A DNA stretch of 64,000 nucleotides from contig CM097887.1 in the NCBI GenBank assembly GCA_044892525.1, positions 63,364,001-63,428,000 on the forward strand, given 5' to 3'. Positions 2,119 through 57,009 of this stretch are shown piece by piece (the first letter of the stretch is position 1; the number at the start of each line of letters is the position of its first letter). The translations under genes were made by a program, and so were the position numbers. A model generated the notes under the pieces. It was not told where the DNA came from and ran no database searches. It saw only the letters and a program-made list of their open reading frames with translations. This stretch comes from Schmidtea polychroa. Lineage: Eukaryota.

Positions 2119-3109
2119 ATGAAAAAAAAATCATCGATACTGCCAAGAGAGAGGAGCTGAAGCAAACCAAGTTAACCAGAGAGATAAGCAAGAAATGTGG
2201 CATCGAAGTTAAGAGAACCAAAGTGAAGTGTATTCTCAGGAAAATGGATGCAATCGAGACTGCAATCAAATCTGGTATTTCATCGAAGCGCATGAGTTGA
2301 CACAAGCACACGACCCGAAGCTTGATGAGGGAGTGCTCATATGGCTGAAGCAAGCAATAGAACAGAATTTGCCTATCAGCGGTGATTTGATCAAGGAGAA
2401 GGCGATGAAACTGGCCGAGTTGATGCATATTTCAAACTTCATTGCGAGCGACTGTTGGTTAAACAATTTTAAAAAACGCCACGGCATCACGTTCAAGATG
2501 GTGCATGGCAAAGCTGGAGCAGTAGATTTGCAATCTCTTCTTGAGTGGCCATATCAAATTCTCTGGCCATTACTCACACAGTTCTCTGCAGACGTCTTCA
2601 ACTTGTATGAGACAGGACTCTTCTGGCAACTACTTCCGAATAAGACCAGTGTACAGGAGGAAATAAAAGTAAGCAAAGGATTACTCTTTTAGTTGGGACA
2701 AATATGAGTGGCAGTGCTTCCAAAAGACCCGATTCCTTCGAGACAAGGAGATTCCGGTCGAATACAAGGAGAACTCTAGGTATGGATGACGGCGAAGCTT
2801 TTCGAGGAAATATTGCGTGCGTGGGACGGAAGACTTAGCCAGCTGGGGTGTAGAGTGCTGGTTTGTCTTGATAACTTATATGGCCACTCTCCCGAGCTCA
2901 AGCTGAACAACATTCAACTAGTCTTCTTCCCACCCAACTCGACAGCCAACTCGCAACCAATGGATCAAGGAATCATAGAAAACCTCAAACGCCACTGCTG
3001 TGTCGCCGATTTGAGGCCATGGATGAAGTTTAAGTTTACGTTGCTTGACGCTTTACATATCGCCCGACGTGTTTGCTTGCAGGTCAGCAAAGCTTATTTT
3101 CAATTGTAA
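2119..3109 (+). mobile_element. Degenerate pogo/Tigger transposase (CENP-B HTH + DDE_1)
   Basis: LDEGVLIWL...PISGDLIKEKAM...WLNNFKKRHGI (CENP-B HTH), FNLYETGLFWQLLPNKT, and LDNLYGH...IQLVFFPPNSTANSQPMDQGII (DDE_1); split by frameshifts. Confidence 0.9.
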
Positions 3110-11035: not shown

Positions 11036-12750
11036 ATTTAACTAATACAACATCAGACCGTATCAACCCATGGCAGAGCCAGTAGCGTAACTATCGGCCC
11101 GCAACTGCGGTGGCCCAGGTAAAAGAGGGTTTATTTTCTGGCCTGAAAAAGTAAATAACTTTTAAATATTTTAATTAATAAATGCACATCAGAAAACCGG
11201 AAGCCGAAACTTCTTGTAAACTCCTTTGTAAAATCAGCAAAACAACAACAATAATAACAATAACAAACAAGTTGTTTGACATCACCACTGCCACCACCAT
11301 CATTATTTCACCGATTTTACAAAGAAAAAACCACAAATAATAAATAATAATATAAAGCAATATTAACACATAAATAAATATCATAGTTTTCTATCCGCTA
11401 TTTATTATAATATATAAAGTTCATATATATTATAATAAACCAATAAATCAATAAAGATAAAATATCTAATTACAGCTTAATAACATAAATAAATAAATTG
11501 ATTAATCACATCCAAATTGTTAATAAGTTATTATTGCAAGTCAATATAATAAATGTTTGTCCCATTAATCAAATAGATACATGTATATTTATTCTGTATT
11601 TATTTGTTTCTATTATGCAATGTTTAAGTTTTAGAATCCTCAGTGTTCGTCAATTTTCTAACAATTGTACGAAAAATAAAACATATTGTTCGAATAACTA
11701 CAATATCATTGTTAATTGTCGTGAAATTGCATCTTGGATTGAATTGGGATTTGAAATCTGAGATTGGCTTTTCATCTATCTTTTGTGAAAATATTAACCC
11801 AATATCTGTATGAGCTTGTCCTATAATATTTTGATATGATTAGTGTTTTAATTGGTCTTCCATTTTCTTCCAACAAATGCTCCTTGTATTTGGTTCCTTA
11901 AATGACATAATTTGTAGGGATGGGTGTTAGAAAGAAAAAGGAAATTGAATTTTTAATCTTTGTAAAATAAAATTTAAAATCAATAAAAGAACCAAAAATA
12001 TTATAATATATTGGTTGAATAAAAAGTTTCTGTTTCACAAAATCCGTTGTTAATATAACGAGATTTTATAAGAATATATTATAAAAACGTTTTTTTCCGA
12101 TTTTACCACTGATTTTTCCCATTGAATTTATTAAAAAGAGCTTGAATCAGTAAATATATCGATGTTTTTGATAATCACGAATTTTCGGCACTGCCTTTTT
12201 GTGTATATACAAAAGTGTTTCCATAGAAATGAGCTCCGGTCTCTAAATTAAAACATAGGTCACGCATTATTATAATATTTTCTATATATTATGAAACTTA
12301 GCAAACTTACCTGTTCGCACTCCCGATATGCTGCCCCAAAGAGGCGGCCGTTTTAGTTTCTAAATATTATTGAAAACATTAACGATAATTTTTGAGATAC
12401 TTTTTACTTGAATAAAAACATAGAAAACTCACAAATAAGGAGGTGATTAAACTTGAAAATAATAAAAACTGATTTCAAAAACAATTAAACATTGAATACA
12501 ATCAAAACTGTATTCAATATCACACAATAAAAATCAACTCTTTAAAAGACAGTTTTGTCTTTTGCAAAATATTTATTAAATAAAACTCTTTTTTTACATC
12601 GTTATGTTTCATTTTGATCCAATTCATCATCATCCGTTTGAATTCCTTAGTCAACATCCCTGATATCAATTCCTAAATAATGTCGAAATGCGAGACTAGT
12701 ATTTTCTCCACCATAATAAAATAATATAAAAACATTTATTATATATAAAA

Positions 12751-13815
12751 TTATTTATACATCAGCCAAAATAAACAGTGTTTACCACATGTTTGAGTCA
12801 TTGGATTTTGAAACATTGTCTTATTATATACCAAGGGTGGGCACGCATGGGTTCAATAAGAGCCATTTTCCGAAAATTTATTTTTTACAGAGCCACCATA
12901 GTTAAGTACATATTTTTTTTTATTTCATTAATTTGATTAAAGAGACTTAAACGCTATTAAAAAAAAACAAAATAATTATAAAAACTTTTCTGTCCATTCT
13001 TCTTGAAAAGTTCTATTTTCTTGTCTGTATTTTCGTTTTTTGATGTTTTCTGATGTCATTATAATAATAAATTTAAATAACTATATGGTTGAAATTTAAA
13101 CAAAATAATAAAAAGACATTAATTTAATTTTAATTAGTTTAAAATTTTAAAATGCTTCATAAAAAAACTTCTTACCAAATTTTTCATAAAACACGAATAG
13201 AAAACTATACTAAAATATACAAACGACCGCAATCTTGTACAAACAAAATAATAACCAATCAAAATTCACTAAATTTATTTTTGATGCTTCTCTCTCGTTG
13301 TTATAACAAAGCGCCGCCTACTACAAAATAATTTTAAAAAGCAGTAAAATGTGAAAAACAATGTTTCGTTAATTTTTGACATTTATGAAAATACAATTGC
13401 AACAAAAATTTTTTTCTCAAAACATTTAGTGAAAATTTTCAAAATAAAAAATCGAATTCGATTATCAAGAATTCAATTATCAATGAGCCGCAGTTTACTC
13501 AACGAAGAGCCGCACGCGGCTCTAAGAGCCGCATTTGCCCACCGTTGTTATATACAATTGGTTTACCCATTGTTTGCCTTTTTGATACTAATAAAGCAGC
13601 ATAATAAAAACCCATAGGATCAAATAAATGTATCCTGTCAGGTGTTAGATAGACTCCAATCCAATGTTCACCACCAAGATACAATGAATGAGTATTGACA
13701 ATTATGGCTTGATTTTTTCGTAAATATGGCATTTTATCTTATGGCTATACTTCAACAAACTCATTTCCTTAAAACATGTTTTCCAATTCGATTGACTTGA
13801 ATAGAACTACACCAA
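12751..13815 (-). pseudogene. Adenain-like (Polinton PRO) cysteine protease, split by a hAT insertion
   Basis: Removing 12832-13547 and one TSD gives ...DKMPYLRKNQAIIVNTHSLYLGGEHWIGVYLTPDRIHLFDPMG...MGKPIVYNKTMFQNPMTQTCGKHCLFWLMYK*, with catalytic H, D and Q...CG.HC; stops in the 5' part. Confidence 0.85.
12832..13547. mobile_element. Non-autonomous hAT element
   Basis: TIRs CAAGGGTGGGCA / TGCCCACCGTTG, subterminal GAGCCGC repeats, perfect 8-bp TSD TTATATAC. Confidence 0.92.
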
Positions 13816-13869: not shown

Positions 13870-15265
13870 TAACATTACCAACTGCATTTATACTATGTTT
13901 GCACCTCATTTTCAAATACTCCTTATATTATAACATGCACAGGTTCTGCAATAGGTTTTGCAAACTTTATATCTAATAGTAAATTTTCATTTTGAGGTAA
14001 TTAATTCTGATTTAAATAAAAATCAAGTGCCAAAACAACTGTAAAATGGATATTTGGTTTTGAATTCTTCAAGAGTTATACCATAATTCAATTTTTTATT
14101 CAAATAACCTATATTTCTCACAATAATTTGCATATATTTCGCACAGTAATTATCATTATTAAAATCTTGATTGTATGTTTCTCTATAATCAGTATTTTTC
14201 GACAATGAAAGAGAAGCAACACTAAGGGGTTTGAAAATTGAGCTTGAAGCAGTGCATGATCCAATATATTGAGTTTCAGATTGAAATGTTATCAAAATAA
14301 AATTAGGCATTATTCTATGTCCAAATATTTTTTCCTTATAGAAGGAAGAAGCACCTTTGACAATTGTAAATGAAACTATTTCGTTTGTTGGATTTTTATT
14401 CGAAAGTCGGTCCTCTCTCTGACTCCTCGTGTTCTTATTCAACAAAATAAATCAAACCCAATACAGAATAATTTTGTTCAATCTTTATCACAATTATACT
14501 TTGTCACTATTTGCACCTTTCGCTTCAGATAATTTTCCACTCGATAAGGTACGAGTTTTACCTTTTTTGAACAACTATATTTCTTCTTTAGATTACTGAT
14601 CGCCGGATTTTTGCTTCTCTTCTTTCTTTTTCTCTTCGACAAAATGGCGGCTTGCTCATTTCTGAGCTCTCTTTTTATACTGTTTCTGAGAAGGCAATTA
14701 TCTAGAAAATTCCCTCTCTTAATCTTGCTCGGGTCTCACTGCGCATTGGGTTTCCTTCAGCTGTCAGGTTTCCCATGAACTCAGGCTTTCCATTACTGAT
14801 TAATTAATTTTAATTAATTTGTTCTTTCGTATTAACTTTCTTTGTGAATACCTTATTAAATTTTCGTTATAATTTCTGAGCTTATCTATAAAATTGGCGT
14901 TCAACCATACTCGATACCCCAGTTCAATATTGATTTTTAATTTTTAGTAAATTTTAATTTATTTTGCACTTTTATTGATTTTATCCATTTTTGTTATGCT
15001 TTTCTTTTATATATGATTTTTTGGTTTTGTAAGGGATAGATTGCAACCTTAGAATTAAGACCCAACTGATGACCTGTTAATACCAACGGATCAACTCAAA
15101 TTCTTCTTACTAGTAATTTTGCATCAATTACTTAACATACTGGTTGACTAGTAGCACTAGTTAATGATAATGCAAAATCAGATCTTTTAACCTAATGTGC
15201 ACTGACTCCTGGAAGTAAATATTTCGGTTGACCCAGAAAGTCTAGTTGTAATGATGAACACATGG
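13870..15265 (-). pseudogene. Polinton major capsid protein (double jelly-roll), C-terminal part, interrupted by an LTR
   Basis: LQLDFLGQPKYLLPGV/RLKRSDFAL...AKLLVRRI.VDP.V..GH..GL...AIYPL [LTR] EIVSFTIVKG...MPNFILI...GITLEEFK.../LDIKFAKPIAEPVHVII.GVFENEV, collinear with Maverick MCP. Confidence 0.8.
14386..15026 (-). mobile_element. Solo LTR, family A (5'-truncated), inserted in the capsid gene
   Basis: TGTTGGA terminus and CTCTGACTCCTCGTGTTCTTATT motif; capsid frame resumes on both sides (YPLQ|NEIVSF), with AACC/AACG at the junctions. Confidence 0.8.
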
Positions 15266-15279
15266 TGAAAATCATTGAG

Positions 15280-15620
15280 CCTTTAATCCATATCAAGTTA
15301 ATCATTAAAATAATATATACCTCTACAGACCATTGAAAATAATTTTCAAAGTCTGAGCCCGATTTCTCTAAAATATGTTTCATACCTATGAAACATAAAA
15401 TAATTCGCGTCCATGTAATTTCATCATCAAATAATGTATAAAATATTTCTTCGAATAGTTTCCTCTTTTGTTGGATTGCCTATCAATTGATAATAATAAG
15501 GTTATCTTCAACGATTTTTCTGAGTGATTAACAAGGAATTTCATTATTAATCACATCGTCACTTTCTTTGTTACAGGCAAGACCATTTAACAGGTCAATA
15601 ATAAATGTTGTTTGTGTCAT
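15280..15620 (-). pseudogene. Bcl-2-like (BH1-containing) ORF remnant in the Maverick
   Basis: In frame from ATG 15620 with three stops: ...SLRKIVED...KRKLFEEIFYTLFDDEITWTRIILCFIGMKHILEK...; LFDDEITWTRIILCF resembles BH1 LFxDGINWGRIVALF. Confidence 0.5.
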
Positions 15621-16950
15621 TTATAAATAATTGTTGAAATGTTGGTCTATTTATATCATTGCTGTTGAGATGTATTATTAATAAAAGAATATGATTGGTT
15701 AAGCAAAAAAGAAAAATGAATTTTAATAATATTCAAACTAAACCTCCAGCCTTTTTGGGTAGGCTGACTGGTATGCTGATGATTTTAATCTTTGTATTTT
15801 AAATAAATGTACATCAACAAATTTCGTGGTGAAATGTTGATATAAAAAATTTTGTAATAAAGTTGAGAAATTTAGTTTAGACTTTAAAATTTTTAAAAGA
15901 TTTTTGAATTGGGAAATATGTTTTTGGGACGTTTTAAAATTTGAGGACATTTTTTGAGTTGCGAAATTTATTTATTTATTATATAAAAAATGTTATATTA
16001 TGGTGTGACCTATATTTTAATTTAGAGAATTCGGAGCTCATTTCCATGGAAACTAAGCATTTATTGTATATACACTCCACATATATTCGTAACCTACATA
16101 GAATTTTACATAGATATTTTCCCAGGGGAGGGGGCTTGGTCCAGCGGTGACACTTTCATCTACTAACAATCCTTTCCTTCATGTCTACACCAAAGCGCAT
16201 TTGATTATCATAAATGAGACATTCATTTAGCTTTGTTTTGGATTTTAGTTAATTTTAAGATTTTTTTTAAAATAATGAACAAAGAAGTAAGATATTTATT
16301 TATTTATTATAATATATATTAAATTTTTCATAGTTCACCTAAAATATCAAGTATTTAGGAAAGAACCTTTAATATGATTATTAATATGATTTTTGAAATT
16401 ATTATGATCTGGTTTTCGAAGTTCCTCGTTAACTGCTTTGGATATTGCAGTAAATCATTCATTGAAGGTAAATCTGTCTGGAAAATCCATCAACCGAGGA
16501 AACTTTAGTCATTTCCCCATTTTTAATTTTGCTCAACACTTTCGATGTGGTTCAAAAATGGATTATATGGCAACTTTTCTATTTGAATAGTCAATGAAGA
16601 TATATTATTGTAAATGGATTAGCTCATCTTTGAAAATTGAGACCTCGATTTGTTGGTATATAGTTATAAATTCTATTGTCTACTCGTGATCTACCGAAGC
16701 TCTTGTTCGTCTATCTATTGAAGAGCATTCATCTATGAATTTCTTGAAATGAAATAGTCGATTCTGATGAAGTTTCTGACATATTCTTGTATATTTTTTT
16801 ATAATTAATTAATTTTAAATGGAAAAGTTTTAGCTAATTGAATGTCCGCATGATAAATCAATGTCCTATAGTGTGTATTTTTTATTATAGAACCGTGTTT
16901 GTATGTATTTAGTTATTTTTCTTCCAACAGCGATTTTTTCTATCTTTCTA

Positions 16951-17907
16951 CACCTAATTCCGAAATTTAATAACTTCTATAATCTAAAAAAAATCAATAA
17001 ATATATATTATAGGAACACACAAACTTACCTGTGTGTAGAAATTTATCATTCCGGAATTTAGTAACTTTATTATAGGTTTTGTGAAGGTGAGAAAAAAAT
17101 AACTCAACACACCAACACAAAACACATAATGAAAAATACATGTAAAATTCTTATATAGGTTTTTGTTCTGAATCAAATAACTGTTAACATATTGTTAACA
17201 TATTGTTAAAATATAATTATTTTAAAATTATTAAAAAATGCAAGAAAATACTTTTAATTTAGATTCCGACAGCTCTATCTTGAGCTTTAGGGAAAAAGAA
17301 GAAAATACAATGTAAGTTTTATTCATTAAATTACAAAACATTAAAATATTTTATAGTATGTGTGAAGGCAGCATTTCAAATATTGAAGGTCCTTCGAGAT
17401 CTTTTGATTTACAGAAAGAAAAAAAGCCATCGAAAATGAGCTGCAGAAAGAAGATTAAAAAAATTTAAAAAACTATTTCGTTCATGTCCGCCGATTTTTC
17501 CCTAAATGTCTTAAAAAAATAAATGTGTTTGGTGATTAATTTTATTTATTTATAAATATAAAAATATCTAACTTACATTTTAGCGAAATAATTCCATATT
17601 AATGCATAAAATATCATAAATTTCCTAAAAACACCTGAAATTTAATTATTTATATATTATATTATAAATGATGACTAACAGTAATATTTAAGAACTTGAA
17701 TAATGATCTCATAATTATATAAGATCAAAATTCAAGTCTTAAAATATACTTGAAATTAAAAAAATTACCTGAAAACCATTTTTGTTGCTAATAAATTATA
17801 GAATAAATGAAATTGATTAACTTCATTTTCACGTAAATGGTGACTCACCTCAACTGGTGTGCACACCAACGTGAATTATAGAGGTTACTCAATTTCGGAA
17901 TTGGGTG
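16951..17907 (+). mobile_element. Complete 957-bp non-autonomous DNA transposon with CAC...GTG termini and TA TSD (superfamily unresolved: CMC-like or Tc1/mariner)
   Basis: TIRs CACCTAATTCCGAAATTTAATAACTTCTATAAT and the reverse complement of CACCCAATTCCGAAATTGAGTAACCTCTATAAT; TA on both sides; near-identical inverted copy at 43704-44447; carries spliced ORF join(17238..17311,17357..~17468). Confidence 0.85.
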
Positions 17908-19022
17908 TATAGTGTAAGAGCTAATTTAATATCACTTAGCTAATTCAATGTCCCTTCTGGCTATGACACACATATATTTATTATAAGTTAATATTTATAT
18001 TATTAAATATGCAAATCAATGGCCATTTGATGATAATCAAATGCCGGTTGGTGTATCCATGGCTTTGGCATGAAGGGAATGAATGTGATCCGTTCACAGA
18101 AGTTAATTTTTTGAATTTAGGTTTCCTTTACCTTTAGGATTTCTAGATTTTTGAATGGTAATTTTTATTATTTTTATGAATCCAATAATTCATCAATTTT
18201 TAACGACAATTTTAAATCCTCATTAGGAATTTCACATTGAATCCAAAACTCTGAAAATTTAATTCTAGTTCATCAAACTACGAATTATTAATTATGCTTT
18301 TTTTGATAGTCAATATTTTTTTTAAAAAGAAAATAAATAATGCTTAAATCGCTGAATTTGTAATATATTAAAAAAAATTCATGTGAGTTAATAAAGTTAA
18401 ATGTCATTTAACTTGATAATGACTAGCTGGCTGGAACTCATTAGTTGGAGCAACGTTATATTGGATTGATCCTTTTTATCAAGTGCTCCAATCGACTGAA
18501 TCGCTAACGCATCATTTGCAAATATGATTCCAACATGAAAAAATGAGCAGCCCCAGTAAAATTTATCAGTAGATTTTTTCATTGATTTAAAGAAGCATGA
18601 TGACACCGGATATTTGTCGATTTTCATTGTCAACTCGGCATTCCAGTTAGAATTCACGGTAAACTAAAATAAAAAGAATTCTACAAGTGATATGGATTAA
18701 AGCATTGATAAGCAACTTGTGTAAACTAACGGAAAAATTAATAAAAAATCCAAAATTTGGAAGAGTAAACCATTCTAAACGAAGAAATTTTTCTTAATTA
18801 AAATCAGTGGTTTGCTTCAGAAGGAGCCTATAGATTTGTGGTTAAAATTCAACATTGGAAAGTGTATTAATTTAATGTATTTAAACAATTGTAAAATTGA
18901 TTCTTTTCAACGGTTTGTATTTTTTTGGTTTGAATTCAAAGGGGCATTTTTTCGACCTTTACTCAGTTGCCAGCACGTTGAAATTTATTGAAATAGTGTC
19001 ACAAAATGTTGGTGGTATAGGG

Positions 19023-38093: not shown

Positions 38094-39314
38094 ATGTCAT
38101 TAGACAACTCTTTTTATAGCACATTTAATAATATTAGTTGGAAAAGTGTAGAACCTCTCACCTTATCAGATATTGAAAAAATGAGAAAAGAATTTTGGGA
38201 AACTGCTTATGCATATGAAGGTTATAAAGAAACTTGGGATGCACTGAAAATGTGTGCGGAACACATTCAAAATAAAAGATATGAAAAAGCGCAGGAACTT
38301 TTATTGTATGCTGGAATTATTATACCAAACGGTAAGCAAAATGAAACAATTTTATTGAAATTTTTAAAATTATCTATTTCGCAAATAAATTTTTAGTGAC
38401 TATGTAGCACTTAGTGTTTGAAATCTTTTCCTAGGGTTGAAAAACATTTCAACTTATTATTGATTATTTTGTAACATTATAAAGATTAAAGTTTTGTTTA
38501 ATAGTTTACAGTGATTATATACCTTACTAATTGACAGTTCTAAATTAAAGTTCAAATTAAATATTTAAATTTAAAACAACTTTCTTTTCATATTACCGTT
38601 GAAAATTGTAATTAACATATTTAAAAACGATTTTATGTTCTAAATGGTTACTGATATTCTTTTTGCATTTATTTGTAAAAAAACATACAGTGGTATCTCT
38701 ATTTCTTTGGATACAAGATTTTTGACAAATTATTGGCAAATATTACTGTTCGTGATGCGTAATTTATTGTACTAGTATGATAGTATTCCTACATGATGCG
38801 TATTTTCTTCACTAGGGCACCACTGTTCACATGCGATAGTTACGTCTCTCCGTTTTACAAAACGTATAACTACTGATCAATTTATATAATTAATAAATTA
38901 GAAGTTTATTTGCATTACAATTTAGGTAATTTGACTGAATGTTACAATGAACTTGGATATAAATTTGAAATTCCTAATTATGTTCTTAGTCTGCCAACGA
39001 ATCTAAAAACCGAGGCAGAAAAACGTGATAATGAATTACCAACAGGCAATGGTCAACATTATTCTCCAATAACAGTTCGCTTATCTGATCTGCGTAGTTA
39101 TTCTTTGGAGGTTGAATATAATGATACAGTGGGACATTTGATGTCTCAGTTAGAAAAGAATTGTGATATTCCTCAATCGAGTCAGCGGTGGTATTTCGAT
39201 GGAAAGCCTATGAGAAAAGATGTTCTCATTAGGAAATATCAAATCCATCCTAACTACATTGTTCAAGTTATTATTCATAAACCTAAGAAACCGGAAAATT
39301 TCATTGACTATTAA
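38094..39314 (+). CDS. UBTD: Ubiquitin domain-containing protein (UBTD1/2-like): join(38094..38331,38926..39314), 208 aa; a further 5' exon is possible
   Basis: WKS..PLT...EFWETAYAYEGYKETWDALK...IIIPNG|NLTECYNELGYKFEIPNYVLSLP (UBD domain) plus C-terminal ubiquitin-like domain (SQRWYFDGK...YIVQVII); GT-AG intron, frame preserved. Confidence 0.9.
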
Positions 39315-43008: not shown

Positions 43009-43703
43009 TTATTAATGGAAACTAAACAGAATTAAAAATAGTAAAAAAATCAATAAAATATTAAAACTAATTTCTTCAACAACCTAAGATTTATATGGAA
43101 ATATTGAAGTTAAAAAAGATAGATTATATCAATCACTTTTCAGTAAGTAAATTTGTTGTAAAGAATTAAAAGTTGTCATCTTAAGAGTTCATTTGTTTTT
43201 ATAATAGTTGTTATACACAATCCACACACAAGAACCTCAGCTGTCCCGATATAGGTTTTAAAGGAGACTGCTGCGCTCTACAAATTTCCCTTAATTACGA
43301 CATAATATAATATAAAATAGCCTACAAAACTTGTATATACTCGTGATGCTGATGTGGTCAACCTTAAGACTAGAAAAAAGATTTTAAATGAGAAATTATG
43401 ATCTTTAATTTTCATCGAGGCGAGGATTACCCCCTGCATTACTCACGGAATTATCGGATTATTAGTAGCACCATTATCGATATTTTCATTTTCCCATGTT
43501 AATAGTCTTAATATCCTCATGTGAGTATTTATGTCATGAGTGTTCGTGGTGCGGCTGCCAGGAGTTTACTATGGCCGTTTTCTCATTAATATCAGGGTAG
43601 TTAGGATTATCTATCATTTGTGTCACCAAGAGAGCCAAAAGAATTTTGTAGAGTAAAAACCTTCGATTGAGGAATATCATTGTAGCTACATAAAGAAACA
43701 GAT

Positions 43704-46700
43704 ACACCCAATTCCGAAATTGAGTAACCTCTATAATTCACGTTGGTGTGCACACCAGTTGAGTGAGTCACCATTTATGTGAAAATGAAGTTACTCAATT
43801 TCATTTATTCAATTTATTAAAAATGGTTTTCAGGTAATTTTTTTAATTTCAAGTATATTTTAAGACTTGAATTTTGATTTTATATAGTTATGAGATCATT
43901 ATTCAAGTTCTTAAATATTACTGTTAGTCATCATTTATAATTTATCATTTATAAATATATTAATAACTAAATTTCAGGTGTTTTTTAGGAAATTTATGTT
44001 ATTTTATGCATTAATATGGAATTATTTCGCTAAAATGTAAGTTAGATATTTTTATATTTATAAATAAATAAAATTAATCACCAAACACATTTATTTTTTT
44101 AAGACATTTAGGAAAAAATCGGCGTAAATGAACGAAATAGTTTTTTAAATTTTTATAATCTTCTTTCTGCAGCTCATTTTCGATGGCTTTTTTCTTTCTG
44201 TAAATCAAAAGATCTCGAAGGACCTTCAATATTTGAAATGCTGCCTTCACACATACTATAAAATATTTTAATATTTTGTAATTTAATGAATAAAACTTAC
44301 ATTGTATTTTCTTCTTTTTCCCTAAAGCTCAAGGTAGAGCTGTCGGAATCTAAATTAAAAGTATTTTCTTGCATTCTTTAATAATTTTAAAATAATTATA
44401 TTTTAACAATATGTTAACAGTTATTTATTTCGGAACAAAAACCTATACACCTAACTGCGAAATATAACATTATCTATAATCTAAAAAAAATCAATAAATA
44501 TATATTATAGGAACACACAAACTTACCTGTGTGTAGAAATTTAATGCTGCGAAATTTAACATATTTATTATAGGAATCTAAAAAGTGAGAGAAAATAATT
44601 AAGCATACAAGCACAGCACACATAATGAAAAATACATACAAAATTAAGTAAAGTGTTTTTCATGCGAAATTCACATTGATTATCATATAATTAACATATC
44701 AATATTTTTAAATTATTTAAAAAGTTATGTACAAAAAAACTTTTGAATCAGATTCCGACTGCTCTACCTTGAGCTTTAGGGAAAAAGAGGAAGATACATC
44801 GTAAGATTTAATTATAAAATAATTTAATATATAAAATTTCTTTAGATTTACAGATATTGAAGAAGATCCTTCGACATCTTCGAATTTGCAGGAAAAAAAT
44901 CGCAAATCGTAAATTTTAATAAATTAATATTTTCATAGAATTACAGAAATAGACAAAATTCGAAAGATTACAAAAACTTAAAAAATATTTTATCCATTCT
45001 TTACTAAATGTCTTTAAAAAATAAATGTTTGGTGATTACTTTACTTATTTATAATTATAAAAATATCTAACTTACATTTTTACGAAATAAATCCAAATAA
45101 ATCCAAATAAAATACCATAAAATTCCTAAAAAAACACCTGAAATTTAATTATCAATGTTATATATTATCAATATTATAAATGCTGACTAACAGTAATATT
45201 TAAGAACTTGAATAATGATCTCATAATTATATAAAATCAAAATTCAAGTCTTAAAAATTTCTTCAATTCAAAAACTTACCTTAAAACGATTTTTGAAAAA
45301 TTGAAAAAATGAAATTAAGTTAACATTGTCATATAATTGGTGAGAATTTAATATAATTGGTAAGAATTTTGCATGCATTTTTCATTATGTGTTTTGTGTT
45401 GCTGTGTTCAGTTATTTTTCTCTCACCTTCACAAAACCTACACTTAATTCCACATGTTAAAAGTCTCTATAATACATGTTGGTGTGTTCATCAATCGATG
45501 ACTCACCATTTATGAGAATGTTTATTTCATTTTTTCATTTCAATTCAATTTTATTTATGGTTTTAGAAGTAAGTTTTTTAAATTTAAGTATATTTTAAGG
45601 CTTGAATTTTGATTTTATATAATTATGAGATCATTATTCAAGCTCTTAAATATTACTTGTAATCAGCATTTATAATATATTTATAATATATTGATAATTA
45701 AATTTCAGATGTTTTTTAGGTATTTTATGACATGTTATGAATTTGGAATTATTTCAATAAAATGTAAGTTAGATATATTTTTAACTAAAAAGAAATAAAA
45801 TAATCACCAAACACATTAATTTTTTTAGACATTTAAGCGTATATGGATAAAGTTGTTTTTTAAGTTTTTGTAATCTTCTTTCTCCAGCTCATTTTCAATA
45901 GCCTCTTTGACGATATAGACGGATTTTTTCATTTTCTGAAATTCTATTAAAATATCATTTTTTAAAAAAAATTTATTAAAATTTACGATTTTCGAATTTT
46001 TTTCTTCAATTCCAAAGATGTTGATGGAACTTGTTGAATATCTTCACACAAAGGCGTTTGACTAGAAATATCTGATATGCTGTAAAATATTTTAATTATT
46101 TGTAATTAAATAAAAAAATTCTTACATTGTCAGATCTTCACCTTCGCAAAATGGAAGTGTCTTCAAAGAAATACCTGAAAATCTAAAGAAATATTGACTT
46201 CAAAAATATTTTATAAATAGATCTTACGATGTTTTGTCGTCCTTTTCTCGAAAACTCAAAATTGAGTTGTCAGATTCAAAATTCAAATTTTTTTCAGCCA
46301 TGAATTTTAATAATTTTAAATTAATGATATGTTAACAGTATGTTAATGACTTTCTACTTTCGGAATAAAAAAAGCTATATTAAATTTGCGTGTATTTTAT
46401 ATTATGTGTGCTGTGTTTGTATGTAAAATTATTTTTCTGTCACTTTCTCAATTCCTATAATAAAACTTTCTACATTCGGAACATTAAATTTTTGCACACA
46501 GGTAAGTTTGTGTGTTGCTATAATATAATTTTATCGATATTTTTTTAGATTATAGAAACTCTTATATTGTGGAAACGGGTGTAATAAAACTTTTAACATT
46601 CGGAGCATTAAATTTTTGCACACAGGTAAGTTTGTGTGTTGCTATAATATAATTTTATCGATTTTTTTAGATTATAGAAATTTTTATATTCTGGATTTAT

Positions 46701-48545: not shown

Positions 48546-49043
48546 TTAAACTTCATTATTTATACACAAAAATTCCCTTACATACATTTGTAAACTAACG
48601 GGTAAAATGTTGTAATTTAGATGATTTTGCAATATAATAATTCGACAATTATGCTTCAATGATAAAATTCTCAATCGAATCGGGCGGTTGAGACAAATAT
48701 CAGAATTTAATACTCCATTAACCATTCCAGCTGGTTTGATAGACTTCTTGAACGATTTTTTCAATTTACAAATTAAAGTATGGAGATTCCTCGATTTCAA
48801 TATTAATGGAGAATAGACTATTAATGAACGAGCAATTTCTGATGATGGCATCTTCAGAGCAAATTCTCCATCAGTATTTGTAATGATTCTAACTTGAACA
48901 AAATACAATCGTTCCTTCACAACTAAAGTAAATGCATTTGGAATTGTCGTACTCGGCCTGATAATAAAATCTCCAACTGGTTTATTATTAAATACATCAG
49001 ATAAACATATTTTTTGATCAGTAAAATACCAAATATCTTCCAT
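48546..49043 (-). CDS. socs: Single-exon SH2 + SOCS-box protein (SOCS/CIS-like), 165 aa
   Basis: SH2 GDFIIRPSTTIPNAFTLVVK; SOCS box LSLKHNCRIII...LPVSLQMYV; intact ORF. Confidence 0.82.
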   Translation of the reverse strand: MEDIWYFTDQKICLSDVFNNKPVGDFIIRPSTTIPNAFTLVVKERLYFVQVRIITNTDGEFALKMPSSEIARSLIVYSPLILKSRNLHTLICKLKKSFKKSIKPAGMVNGVLNSDICLNRPIRLRILSLKHNCRIIILQNHLNYNILPVSLQMYVREFLCINNEV

Positions 49044-49568
49044 TTTTTAATACAAATTCAATAAAAATGTAATTTAGTCAGGAATAAATATTTCAGTTCT
49101 TAGAAAAATATCAAAGGTTTCATTGGATGCTATAAATAGAAACAATTTTTATTAGTTAATGTAAATACATCCTACAGATTAAAACGATTGGTTGATTCAT
49201 GCAGATTCATGTGAATTATAGTCAATAATTTGTAGTCAATAATTTTTATTATTTTATTTTAACCAAACAAAGATTTTTTAATTTTAATCTTTTATTGTTG
49301 TGATCTGAGATAGTAATTTTCCTAGTTATAAGACAAATTTTTCACAGAATTATTTCATGAGATACAACAGGATTTAAACTACAAAAAAATGTAATATTAA
49401 ATAATTGTAATAGTGACATTTATTTTATTAATTGAATCGAAACTAAATATTTTACACTCGATTTTTGAATGTTGCTTTTGAGCCTACAATACCTAGAAGT
49501 TTTAATTATTTTTATAATTTTCTTGGAATTATCTTTCGTATAACTGTTTGACAGTCATTGGCTGAAGC

Positions 49569-54485: not shown

Positions 54486-56050
54486 TTACCACTTATTTGG
54501 CATTTCAAATTGAGATTCAGCAAGAATTTTACTATCAAACTCTTCGTCATTTTTTGTAGGACCAAAGACTATTTTCCTAGTTCCAAAATGTAAATTATCA
54601 TACTTATAGCCAAATTTTTTGGACTCTTTAAATAAATGAGCATGTGTAATCAGTGGAAAAATAGCTGGTAGATATGAATGCCTGGAATGGCCTGGTCTTG
54701 CATTTGTTTCTGGATATTCGTCCAATTTTGGTTTATATCTGTTCATATATTCCTATTGAATAAATGCATTTTAAAGAAAAAAAATAATATTTACCTCAAA
54801 TATTCTATCAGTTTGAGTATGATGGAAAATAAATATGGGGTCACTAGGTGCTGTACCACTGCAGCACATTGAACCATCAATCATATTATGTATTTTGTTA
54901 TGCATGTAAAATAAATCACTTGCTTTTTCAGGTTGACCACACATACCTTCCAAAGCTCTGTGAAACGATTCACATGCTACATCAGTTATTCTTTCTCCTT
55001 GGACGTGAAATCTATTAATTAAAACATTTTCATGTTGTAAAATTCAGAAAAATATTACCGTCGCTTGGATAGTACGAATTCGACATCATCACTTGTTGGA
55101 AATTCAAAACTATTCCATTCTCTTGTAATTTTACCATAATTTCCAGTAACGTGACATCCATAACATGGAGATTCATCAGCGTTATCTGGTTCTTGACAGA
55201 ACTCAGTCCAATTTCCAAATGGGCTTCTTAAACTGATTCTTACTCCATCTTTGTCTCTAAAACCAGGGGCCCCAGCCATATCATCTGTACAAATATCACA
55301 ACTAGTCTGATCTGTCCAATCCCAATATGGCAAGGCAAAGTTTTTTATTCCAAACTCTTTTCTAGCTATATTTTGAAGAAGTCTCTCCCAAAACATCATA
55401 TAATATCTATGCCATGTAGCAAATCCTATTGCTTCATGATTAAAATTTAAAATACCAAAATTTTGACAGTCAAGGTAATCTTCAAACATTGTAGCACGAC
55501 TTCCAAATCTATGAATAAATACAATCATATATTGAATTGAAGCTGGAATCCATTTAATAGGTTTAGTTAAGGGATCACTATTGGCATTTGATTTGTCTAC
55601 ATAAACGCTGTATTCCGAAGGAACATAAAGACTTCTGTCTATAACGGTTCTAGTAATGAATTTATCTCTCTTGCTCAAATGTTTTATGTTTCTGCGTACT
55701 ATCATTGTACGTTTATCACAATGATGTCCTTCCCATCCATACCAACATTCATTGCAAGCAATGCCAAAATAATTATCTCTACAATGGCAAACTGAATGAA
55801 AAAACCGTTTTGGCCACTGAACTCTATCGTCGTATCGAAAGATTTCAGGAATTTTTTCATGAAAATAATCTATATGGCCGCATATTCCTCTTTCATGGCC
55901 TCCACAAACTTCATGGTTGCGTTTCGACCGAGGACAACAAACACCCGTTGTTGTGGCATTATGAACACAAACTGTAGGAATTAAGCATTGTGAGACATCA
56001 ATAAATACAGATATTATTGAAAATGTTACAAATAATAATTTAGAAAGCAT
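54486..56050 (-). CDS. tyr: Tyrosinase, flatworm type, 491 aa: join(56050..55059,55011..54795,54752..54486)
   Basis: Signal peptide; Cys-rich/EGF region (CCP..CGG..RG.C, DDR..WP..FF..C.C); CuA H...FNHE..FATWHR and CuB MHNKIHN...DPIFIFHH; 47- and 42-nt GT-AG introns; total 1476 nt in frame. Confidence 0.95.
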
Positions 56051-57009
56051 GCCTGAAATCAAGTGAATGATAAAATAAATCTTGTTGTTAATACATTTAA
56101 AACAAAAGTCAAAGTCTTTCTTTATCGACTGACGGTTTTATCAAAGAAATAAAGACATTAGAATGAATAAGAGTAAAGATAAATTTAAACTGTTATCTAA
56201 ATAATGTTTTGAATAAATACTTATTGATATTTTTATGAAGAACTAACTTTATCGGGGTTGAAATAAATCTTTGTTTAATTATATCATAATTATATTGTTT
56301 AATTAGTGCATATGAAAAATATACAATAAAACTAAGCAGGATTTTATTACGATTTTAAGAAATAGTAGTTACTTAAAAATATATAATCATGTTGTACCTA
56401 AGTCCAAAGAGACATTATTTAGTGAGAGACTAATAAACTACCAAAGGGTCGCTTATAAATTGAAAATGAACTTACTCCTTTTCTACTTCTTCAACATTAA
56501 AAGGATTGGTAATAGATTAAATCAAACTACAAAGAATTAAGTGTCACATTTCTCTCAAAGAGATGTCAGTACAAAGAACTGGTCTTGTTAGAATGTATTA
56601 AAAGTGTTTGGCAAAATTAATCGGTAGAATAACATGCAAACATGATCATCAAGTGAAGTTAAATCCAGAACATATCGGAACACCAAATAAACAAGGTAAA
56701 GGTAAAGGTAACAAACAAACCTAAAAATCATGAAGCTAAAAGTAATATTAAAATATTAACAAAGGCAAAAAGTTTGACAATTAAAATAACACAAACATGA
56801 CAGGTACAAATAACAAATTTTAAACAAATTCAAATGGAAGGTGATAATAAGGAATAAAAAGTAGAATAAAAATGATATAATAAAAAATGATAAAATATAA
56901 TTTAATTAAATTAGATTAGAAAAAAATAAAAGAAACCTAAGGATGTAGTGCCTGAAATATGCACATTTAATTTTACTTAATTTGATTAAGTTGTTTTAAT
57001 TATTTAAAT

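Follow-up and report, generated by a model that had tools for sequence, protein, structure and literature searches.

Mavericks have been argued to be viruses, and only rarely has a donor or a function been assigned to their accessory genes. For adintoviruses (animal Mavericks/Polintons), Bcl2 homologues are reported in one sentence of the accessible text of Starrett et al. 2021 (PMC8502044), and at least three Bcl2 map labels stand near the cavefish and Steinernema rows of its Fig. S2. Intact vertebrate Mavericks are described, in the available part of PMC8097293, as being without introns. Bcl-2 sequences have also been recorded in other mobile or viral settings: planarian Burro/GYPSM1 LTR retrotransposons carry a BCL2-like domain (PMC6431247), and HVT vNr-13 is a two-exon viral Bcl-2 (PMC7199394). 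On the cellular side, RNAi of Schmidtea mediterranea bcl2-1 leads to systemic cell death and lysis (PMC6970515; PMC4993586; Pellettieri 2010, as cited therein).

Here, we analyse a Bcl-2-like open reading frame in a 64,000-nucleotide stretch of Schmidtea polychroa DNA (hereafter ‘the window’), together with its relatives elsewhere in the same genome. The explanation that we consider best overall, at a probability of about 0.7, is that the frame is an exon of a captured host survival gene, likely encoding a membrane-anchored blocker of mitochondrial death. By itself, the window copy is an ordinary dead fragment. As a family, the planarian cargo is of wider interest, having one probable host donor, with a lethal knock-down in an RNAi-tractable animal, and having been maintained by selection in several of its lineages.

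The window copy and its Maverick

The window gene sits in a Maverick ruin of about 4 kb. Apart from it, the Maverick genes left in the window are capsid and protease remnants only. The features, in window positions, are as follows:

12201..12291, left terminal inverted repeat (TIR) remnant, 81% complementary to 15977-16075
13445..13768, minus strand, adenovirus-type protease gene remnant (comparison with a PF00770 protein)
13899..14388, minus strand, remaining major capsid protein gene (codons 237-400), frameshifted
14389..15017, no strand assigned, unrelated repeat of about 630 bp interrupting the capsid gene (where the match to a fuller element has a gap; more copies within the window)
15012..15290, minus strand, fragment of the major capsid protein gene (codons 146-241), brought next to the intron by a deletion
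15291..15320, minus strand, 5' part of the putative intron, starting with GT; acceptor and exon 2 lost (comparison with other copies)
15321..15620, minus strand, Maverick Bcl-2 gene exon 1, pseudogene (helices 1-6, BH1 LFDDEITWTR; reading frame, Pfam, alignment to copy L002)
15860..16164 (about), no strand assigned, right terminal region of the element

A displaced piece of the protease remnant lies at 12837-12760. The motif AGTAG at 16164 is similar to the terminus of a fuller element, and a different repeat begins near 16180. The TIR of the window element is a 99-bp remnant only, and no target-site duplication was found around it. The gene lies just inside this terminal-repeat sequence (about 15860-16164), in agreement with the initial annotation, which had placed the frame inside the right TIR of a Maverick.

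The window copy is a dead, decayed member of a Maverick Bcl-2 gene family. The residues quoted in the initial annotation, its three stops and its WTR are all present in the frame running from 15620 to 15261 on the minus strand, in which codons 31, 46 and 47 are in-frame stops (15530-15528 and 15485-15480). Compared with the uninterrupted copy L002, to which exon 1 is 68% identical, the window copy has three small deletions (codons ~26 to ~46) and two substitution stops, and the alignment attributes the first stop to a local frameshift. Residues from about 27 to 34 are out of frame between two of the small deletions; the quoted string LRKIVED is present in the translation, its LR belonging to the out-of-frame stretch.

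The coding sequence of exon 1 stops at WSVE (15321), and the VYIILMINLI that follows is read-through into the intron remnant. From 30 nt inside the intron, a deletion extends into the capsid gene (break at 15290 ± 1); at least 2.8 kb is gone, and with it BH2 and the C-terminal anchor. From WIKGS onward, the translation corresponds to codons 146-241 of the major capsid protein (window 15290-15012), just as had been suspected. The accompanying idea of an in-frame fusion to the capsid by a deletion is right about the deletion and wrong about the fusion: since the join lies inside the intron, it is a deletion scar, and a capsid fusion protein is ruled out.

Two further observations concern the rest of the window. 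Inverted repeats of ~700 bp, 95-100% complementary and 26 kb apart (17193-17910 and 43702-44419), have related copies to 46.8 kb and are possibly the ends of another large element. Frames at 38877-39311 (+), 48549-49046 (−), 55058-56137 (−) and 2213-2689 (+) match ubiquitin, SH2, tyrosinase and Tc5 transposase families.

Related copies in the genome

A genome search with the window gene returned at least 150 matches (150 of 2143 candidates were scored, and 150/150 matched). Most A-type copies are broken, the window copy among them. Uninterrupted copies were also found. In fuller elements, the Bcl-2 gene is a separate gene that adjoins the TIR and is followed by ATPase, integrase, capsid, protease and PolB genes, so the possibility that the region is part of another Maverick protein, raised at the outset, is ruled out. 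These fuller copies carry PF03175, PF00665, PF04665 and PF00770 (PolB, rve integrase, packaging ATPase and adenoviral protease). Their capsid genes had no Pfam match, and we take them to be such from their position and motifs.

Another Maverick lineage has an intronless Bcl-2 gene in mid-element and a different gene order. It is represented by the element L096-L098 (G000:C1, about 247.539-247.555 Mb), which has 1.5-kb TIRs that are 97.8% alike and the 6-bp target duplication CATTAT on both sides. Some Bcl-2-bearing Maverick lineages are young, as follows from these near-identical TIRs and the target duplication in one element of the intronless type, and from a family listing in which 40 of 150 rows share one score and have no stop in exon 1.

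In both architectures, a small TBP-like gene (PF00352, E 1.2e-15) is found near the Bcl-2 gene (L051:2240-2695, minus strand; L081:2542-2991, plus strand). At L050-L052 (G000:C1, 50.757-50.780 Mb), Maverick pieces are nested and inverted, and a fuller copy is surrounded by an inverted duplication of 1.1 kb (99%).

Assignment to the Bcl-2 family

The gene almost certainly belongs to the Bcl-2 family, as the initial annotation had proposed from motifs; both profile and fold searches match Bcl-2. The stop-corrected window translation (X at stops) has PF00452 as its sole Pfam match, a weak one (E 0.0087, 17 bits) below the curated cut-off of 31.4 bits. Uninterrupted copies match the same family at E 2.2e-5 and 2.1e-4, and all three full-length element copies tested exceed the cut-off (two intron-bearing copies, with X at the acceptor stop, at 34.4 and 34.6 bits; the intronless copy L081 at 32.7 bits). 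Against PDB sequences, single rows give weak matches that are nevertheless to Bcl-2 proteins: 10/10 for uninterrupted copies (E 0.05-0.8), and Bcl-2 A1 in 5/6 for the window fragment (E 0.14-0.18). Searching PDB with a 15-row family profile retrieves 135 sequences at E <= 0.001, the best being Bcl-xL at E 3.7e-9.

The predicted model of L081 (pLDDT 80.5, pTM 0.75) matches Bcl-xL in Foldseek with a TM of 0.71 and Hydra Bcl-2-4 in VIA-align with Z 14.8 (rmsd 1.8, 120 aligned); in the latter comparison, the top 36 rows have the Bcl-2 fold and the next, unrelated row has Z 5.9. In a model of exon 1 alone, helices 5-6 are open and unpacked, and its matches are unspecific (pLDDT 69.6, Foldseek E >= 0.54, best Z 6.3). 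The fold assignment is a modelled one that rests on L081, which shares 30% identity with the subfamily of the window copy.

The position, W and R of BH1 are kept in most copies, and the Gly of NWGR is replaced by S or T, as in host bcl2-1; L081 additionally has R to K. The WTR of the window copy had been listed among its defects. Decay of WGR is ruled out as its source, because W-S/T-R is the state of the family and host bcl2-1 has the same W-S-R. BH2 (WIxxxGGW) is present in exon 2 of other copies, with the variants GGW, GSW and GDW (the last in L081). Near the C-terminus, a hydrophobic 17-mer with a mean hydropathy of 1.25-2.23 was seen in 8/8 element rows examined and is a predicted anchor.

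Two exons and a putative intron

The initial annotation had envisaged a short single-ORF protein of viral Bcl-2 size. Instead, the gene has two exons, with a predicted spliced protein of about 160 aa to which exon 2 adds BH2 and the hydrophobic tail. Similarity among the subfamilies A-G ends at WSVE/Q. We surveyed 84 loci taken from the hit lists of the genome search and of a Pfam search, a non-random set with some near-duplicates, 82 of which reach the end of exon 1 and 66 exon 2, leaving 16/82 without the second exon. In the 66 copies, exon 2 starts with the pattern I-x6-P-W-x4-G-G-W. Their donor is GT in 59 and GC in one, the acceptor is AG in 56, and 51 have both a GT/GC donor and an AG acceptor, at the same codon; in the other 15/66, a splice site is altered or was misplaced by the script. 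Intron length in the 51 copies ranges from 33 to 98 nt, with 41 nt in 19/51, and is not a multiple of three in 37/51.

The GT-AG segment aligns to a clean gap in both the host protein and the intronless element lineage, and removing it makes the element protein colinear with the host bcl2-1 protein. By its ends, fixed codon, free length and restored frame, it would be a spliceosomal intron, the removal of which from RNA is predicted. Contigs from runs guessed to be RNA contained no joint across the intron for one A-type copy and one B-type copy, the intron of the latter lying in a skipped repeat. The intron of copies L022, L088, L142 and L151 holds a microsatellite expansion (TA or TTA runs, up to 98 nt), with GT-AG kept.

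Probable origin from host bcl2-1

The element gene was very probably captured from host bcl2-1. A Pfam search of the genome returned several cellular Bcl-2 genes, Burro-like polyproteins and L070, which is very like the element gene. L070 is the single-copy orthologue of Schmidtea bcl2-1; it is arranged head to head with a neighbouring host gene, carries a GGW|GT donor with its second exon 3 kb further, and is 89% identical to ACW83059.1, which is named bcl2-1 in a supplement row of PMC4993586. No Maverick genes were found around it in 40 kb (within about 20 kb). The same search brought up two groupings of separate interest: a cluster, within 0.9 Mb, of seven host Bcl-2 genes that are nearly identical to one another, have the canonical NWGR and lack the BH2 intron (L059-L065; G000:C4, 89.95-90.83 Mb), and, at L102-L104 and in many other rows, open frames of up to 3000 aa that contain a Bcl-2 domain, like those described for Burro.

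The initial annotation had likened the frame to adenovirus E1B-19K and ASFV A179L and had suggested a comparison with host paralogues. That comparison places its nearest relative in the host, the closest cellular gene being the bcl2-1 orthologue. The best BLAST hits of 13/13 element rows are three bcl2-1-like rows (47-93 bits), against no more than 40 bits for other host or Burro rows. The window fragment itself is 34% identical to bcl2-1 over 59 aa (E 2e-11).

A tree of 18 of the 25 rows (L071, L073, L072, two Burro rows, L020 and the window fragment omitted; no non-flatworm outgroup) unites the element genes and bcl2-1 in a clade with support of 98/98 and nine intron-bearing genes with 94/93. 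The host clade is placed between the element lineages without and with the intron (81/75), and a single element clade is neither recovered nor rejected (p-AU 0.20). With all rows, the group has 77/77 and includes Burro and host L072 on long branches; with Burro, support is 90/96.

The direction of transfer would rest on the introns, not on the tree. An intron in BH2 is ancestral in animal Bcl-2 genes, according to the part of PMC7527217 available. It is present in 5/8 host genes (L070 and 4/7 others) and in 0/3 element copies examined; the element gene lacks this host intron and, in most lineages, has one at a new site. Since the host's BH2 intron is absent from the element gene, we infer a capture through spliced mRNA, and the simplest history would be that of a processed copy that was captured and then gained a new intron in one lineage. 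A domestication in reverse, by which host bcl2-1 would derive from a Maverick gene, is highly improbable given that the host gene has the ancestral intron and that the tree test does not reject a single clade of element genes. Such a domestication would suit the position of the host clade between the two element lineages, and also the rarity of relatives beyond this genome. An exon-1 search outside it (lengths 58-186) found no relatives, the host-gene search found one, a named planarian protein, and a profile search two further proteins; none of 593 pattern matches in a metagenome scan was confirmed as a relative, and an 18-nt pattern search returned eight viral contigs, 0/8 related.

The two architectures also allow a more elaborate history. 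The intronless element gene is 39-51% identical to the host gene vs 23-30% to other element genes, despite capsids that are 74-79% alike, and it occupies a different place in the element. Given these differences, bcl2-1 might have been captured twice, or one capture might have split into intronless mid-element and intron-bearing TIR-adjacent forms. The intron might then act as a switch, unspliced RNA giving a protein without BH2 and anchor and spliced RNA a survival factor; expression from young integrated copies might lend carrier stem cells a survival edge, and two unrelated kinds of element, Maverick and Burro, might then both steer host apoptosis. We regard this reading as quite unlikely.

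Selection and proposed function

We calculated dN/dS by the Nei-Gojobori method, which here ignores codon bias, for 15 pairs of natural copies. All five pairs among B-type subfamilies have values of 0.08-0.18 (dS 0.6-1.7). The intronless pair has 0.33, three distant pairs have 0.16-0.30 at near-saturated dS, and one pair is saturated; across A, C and D subfamily pairs, dS is saturated or nearly so. Close copies with few changes have 0.40-0.60 (four pairs) and 1.12 (one pair). The gene is under purifying selection between subfamilies (dN/dS 0.08-0.33), and the overall pattern fits selection during element replication and decay after insertion. A neutral hitch-hiker, that is, a captured fragment useless to the element, could account for the broken state of most A-type copies and for the ratios of 0.4-1.1 among close copies; it is largely refuted by the between-subfamily values and by the maintenance of frame and splice sites across lineages 40-50% identical, and it deserves scant credence.

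Viral Bcl-2 proteins hold back Bak/Bax-type killing. The element protein probably has a pro-survival function too, a reading drawn from its origin in bcl2-1 and its retention of BH1, BH2 and tail. The proposed course of events would begin with the capture of host bcl2-1 into a Maverick via spliced mRNA, and one lineage would later have gained a new intron of ~41 nt where helix 6 ends. The host spliceosome would then yield a protein of ~160 aa, the hydrophobic tail of which would enter the mitochondrial or ER membrane. The protein may bind host Bak/Bax-like or BH3 proteins, as is thought for bcl2-1, and Bak/Bax-type killing would be held back during element replication, keeping the host cell alive.

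The main doubts about a pro-survival role, as read from the sequences, would be the missing BH1 Gly and the fast divergence. In vertebrate Bcl-2 and Bcl-xL, the Gly of NWGR is needed for Bax binding. Between subfamilies, the Bcl-2 gene is 23-47% identical, vs 74-81% for the capsid. The same two features, together with the variation of BH2 (GGW, GSW, GDW), would fit a captured gene that has been repurposed for innate-immune signalling or autophagy, like poxvirus Bcl-2-fold proteins; such repurposing is known for vaccinia A46/A52/B14. We nonetheless judge it unlikely: none of BH1, BH2 and the tail anchor has been lost, the L081 model is nearer to pro-survival proteins (Z 13-14.8) than to A52/A46/B14 (Z 6.9-8.0), and the host donor with the same BH1 is anti-apoptotic in S. 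mediterranea.

A decoy or pro-death factor, which would antagonise host bcl2-1 or aid late lysis and release, is very unlikely, as the gene descends from a pro-survival one and its many young copies with a stop-free exon 1 (the 40/150 rows of one score) fit a harmless or silent product. Three observations nonetheless lean towards it. Because bcl2-1 is essential, a protein resembling it could induce cell death; the L081 model has Bak, Bax and Bok among its fold neighbours (Z 11.9-13.2); and genes of the membrane-active gasdermin and PLA2 types occur in adintoviruses (PMC8502044). The planarian cargo makes the question whether Mavericks suppress host cell death a testable one.

Comparison with known systems

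The literature matches listed include no report on planarian Maverick Bcl-2, subscription journals and Repbase being outside the scope. Burro is likewise a planarian mobile element with a Bcl-2 domain and is present in this genome, but its domain is part of a polyprotein, has no NW(G/S)R and sits on a very long branch. To the bcl2-1 of S. mediterranea (ACW83059.1/C9WPR4), the element gene is alike in the W-S-R of BH1, the WSVE at the end of helix 6, BH2 and the tail; the cellular gene differs in being single-copy, 184 aa long and having its intron after the BH2 Trp, whereas the element gene encodes about 144-164 aa and has another intron or none.

Viral Bcl-2 proteins share the fold (ASFV A179L, Z 13.2, and herpesvirus BHRF1, Z 12.3, against the L081 model). 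Their likeness, taken over A179L, adenovirus E1B-19K, BHRF1 and HVT vNr-13, is at fold level only (16-21% identity, best E 2.8e-3 in BFVD). According to the accessible part of its description, vNr-13 keeps the exon structure of its host, whereas the Maverick Bcl-2 intron is not at the host site.

The adintovirus Bcl2 genes are likewise Bcl-2 accessory genes in elements that encode PolB, integrase, ATPase, capsid and protease. The available text of PMC8502044 mentions no planarian, donor or intron for them; here, the donor is traceable and an intron is found in most lineages. That intron, absent from the host site, would represent a traceable intron gain in a class of elements that, in vertebrates, is described as lacking introns. 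Bcl-2 cargo in Mavericks is, in sum, already in print (PMC8502044), and, as far as that text extends, it is the traceable donor and the new intron site that set the planarian case apart.
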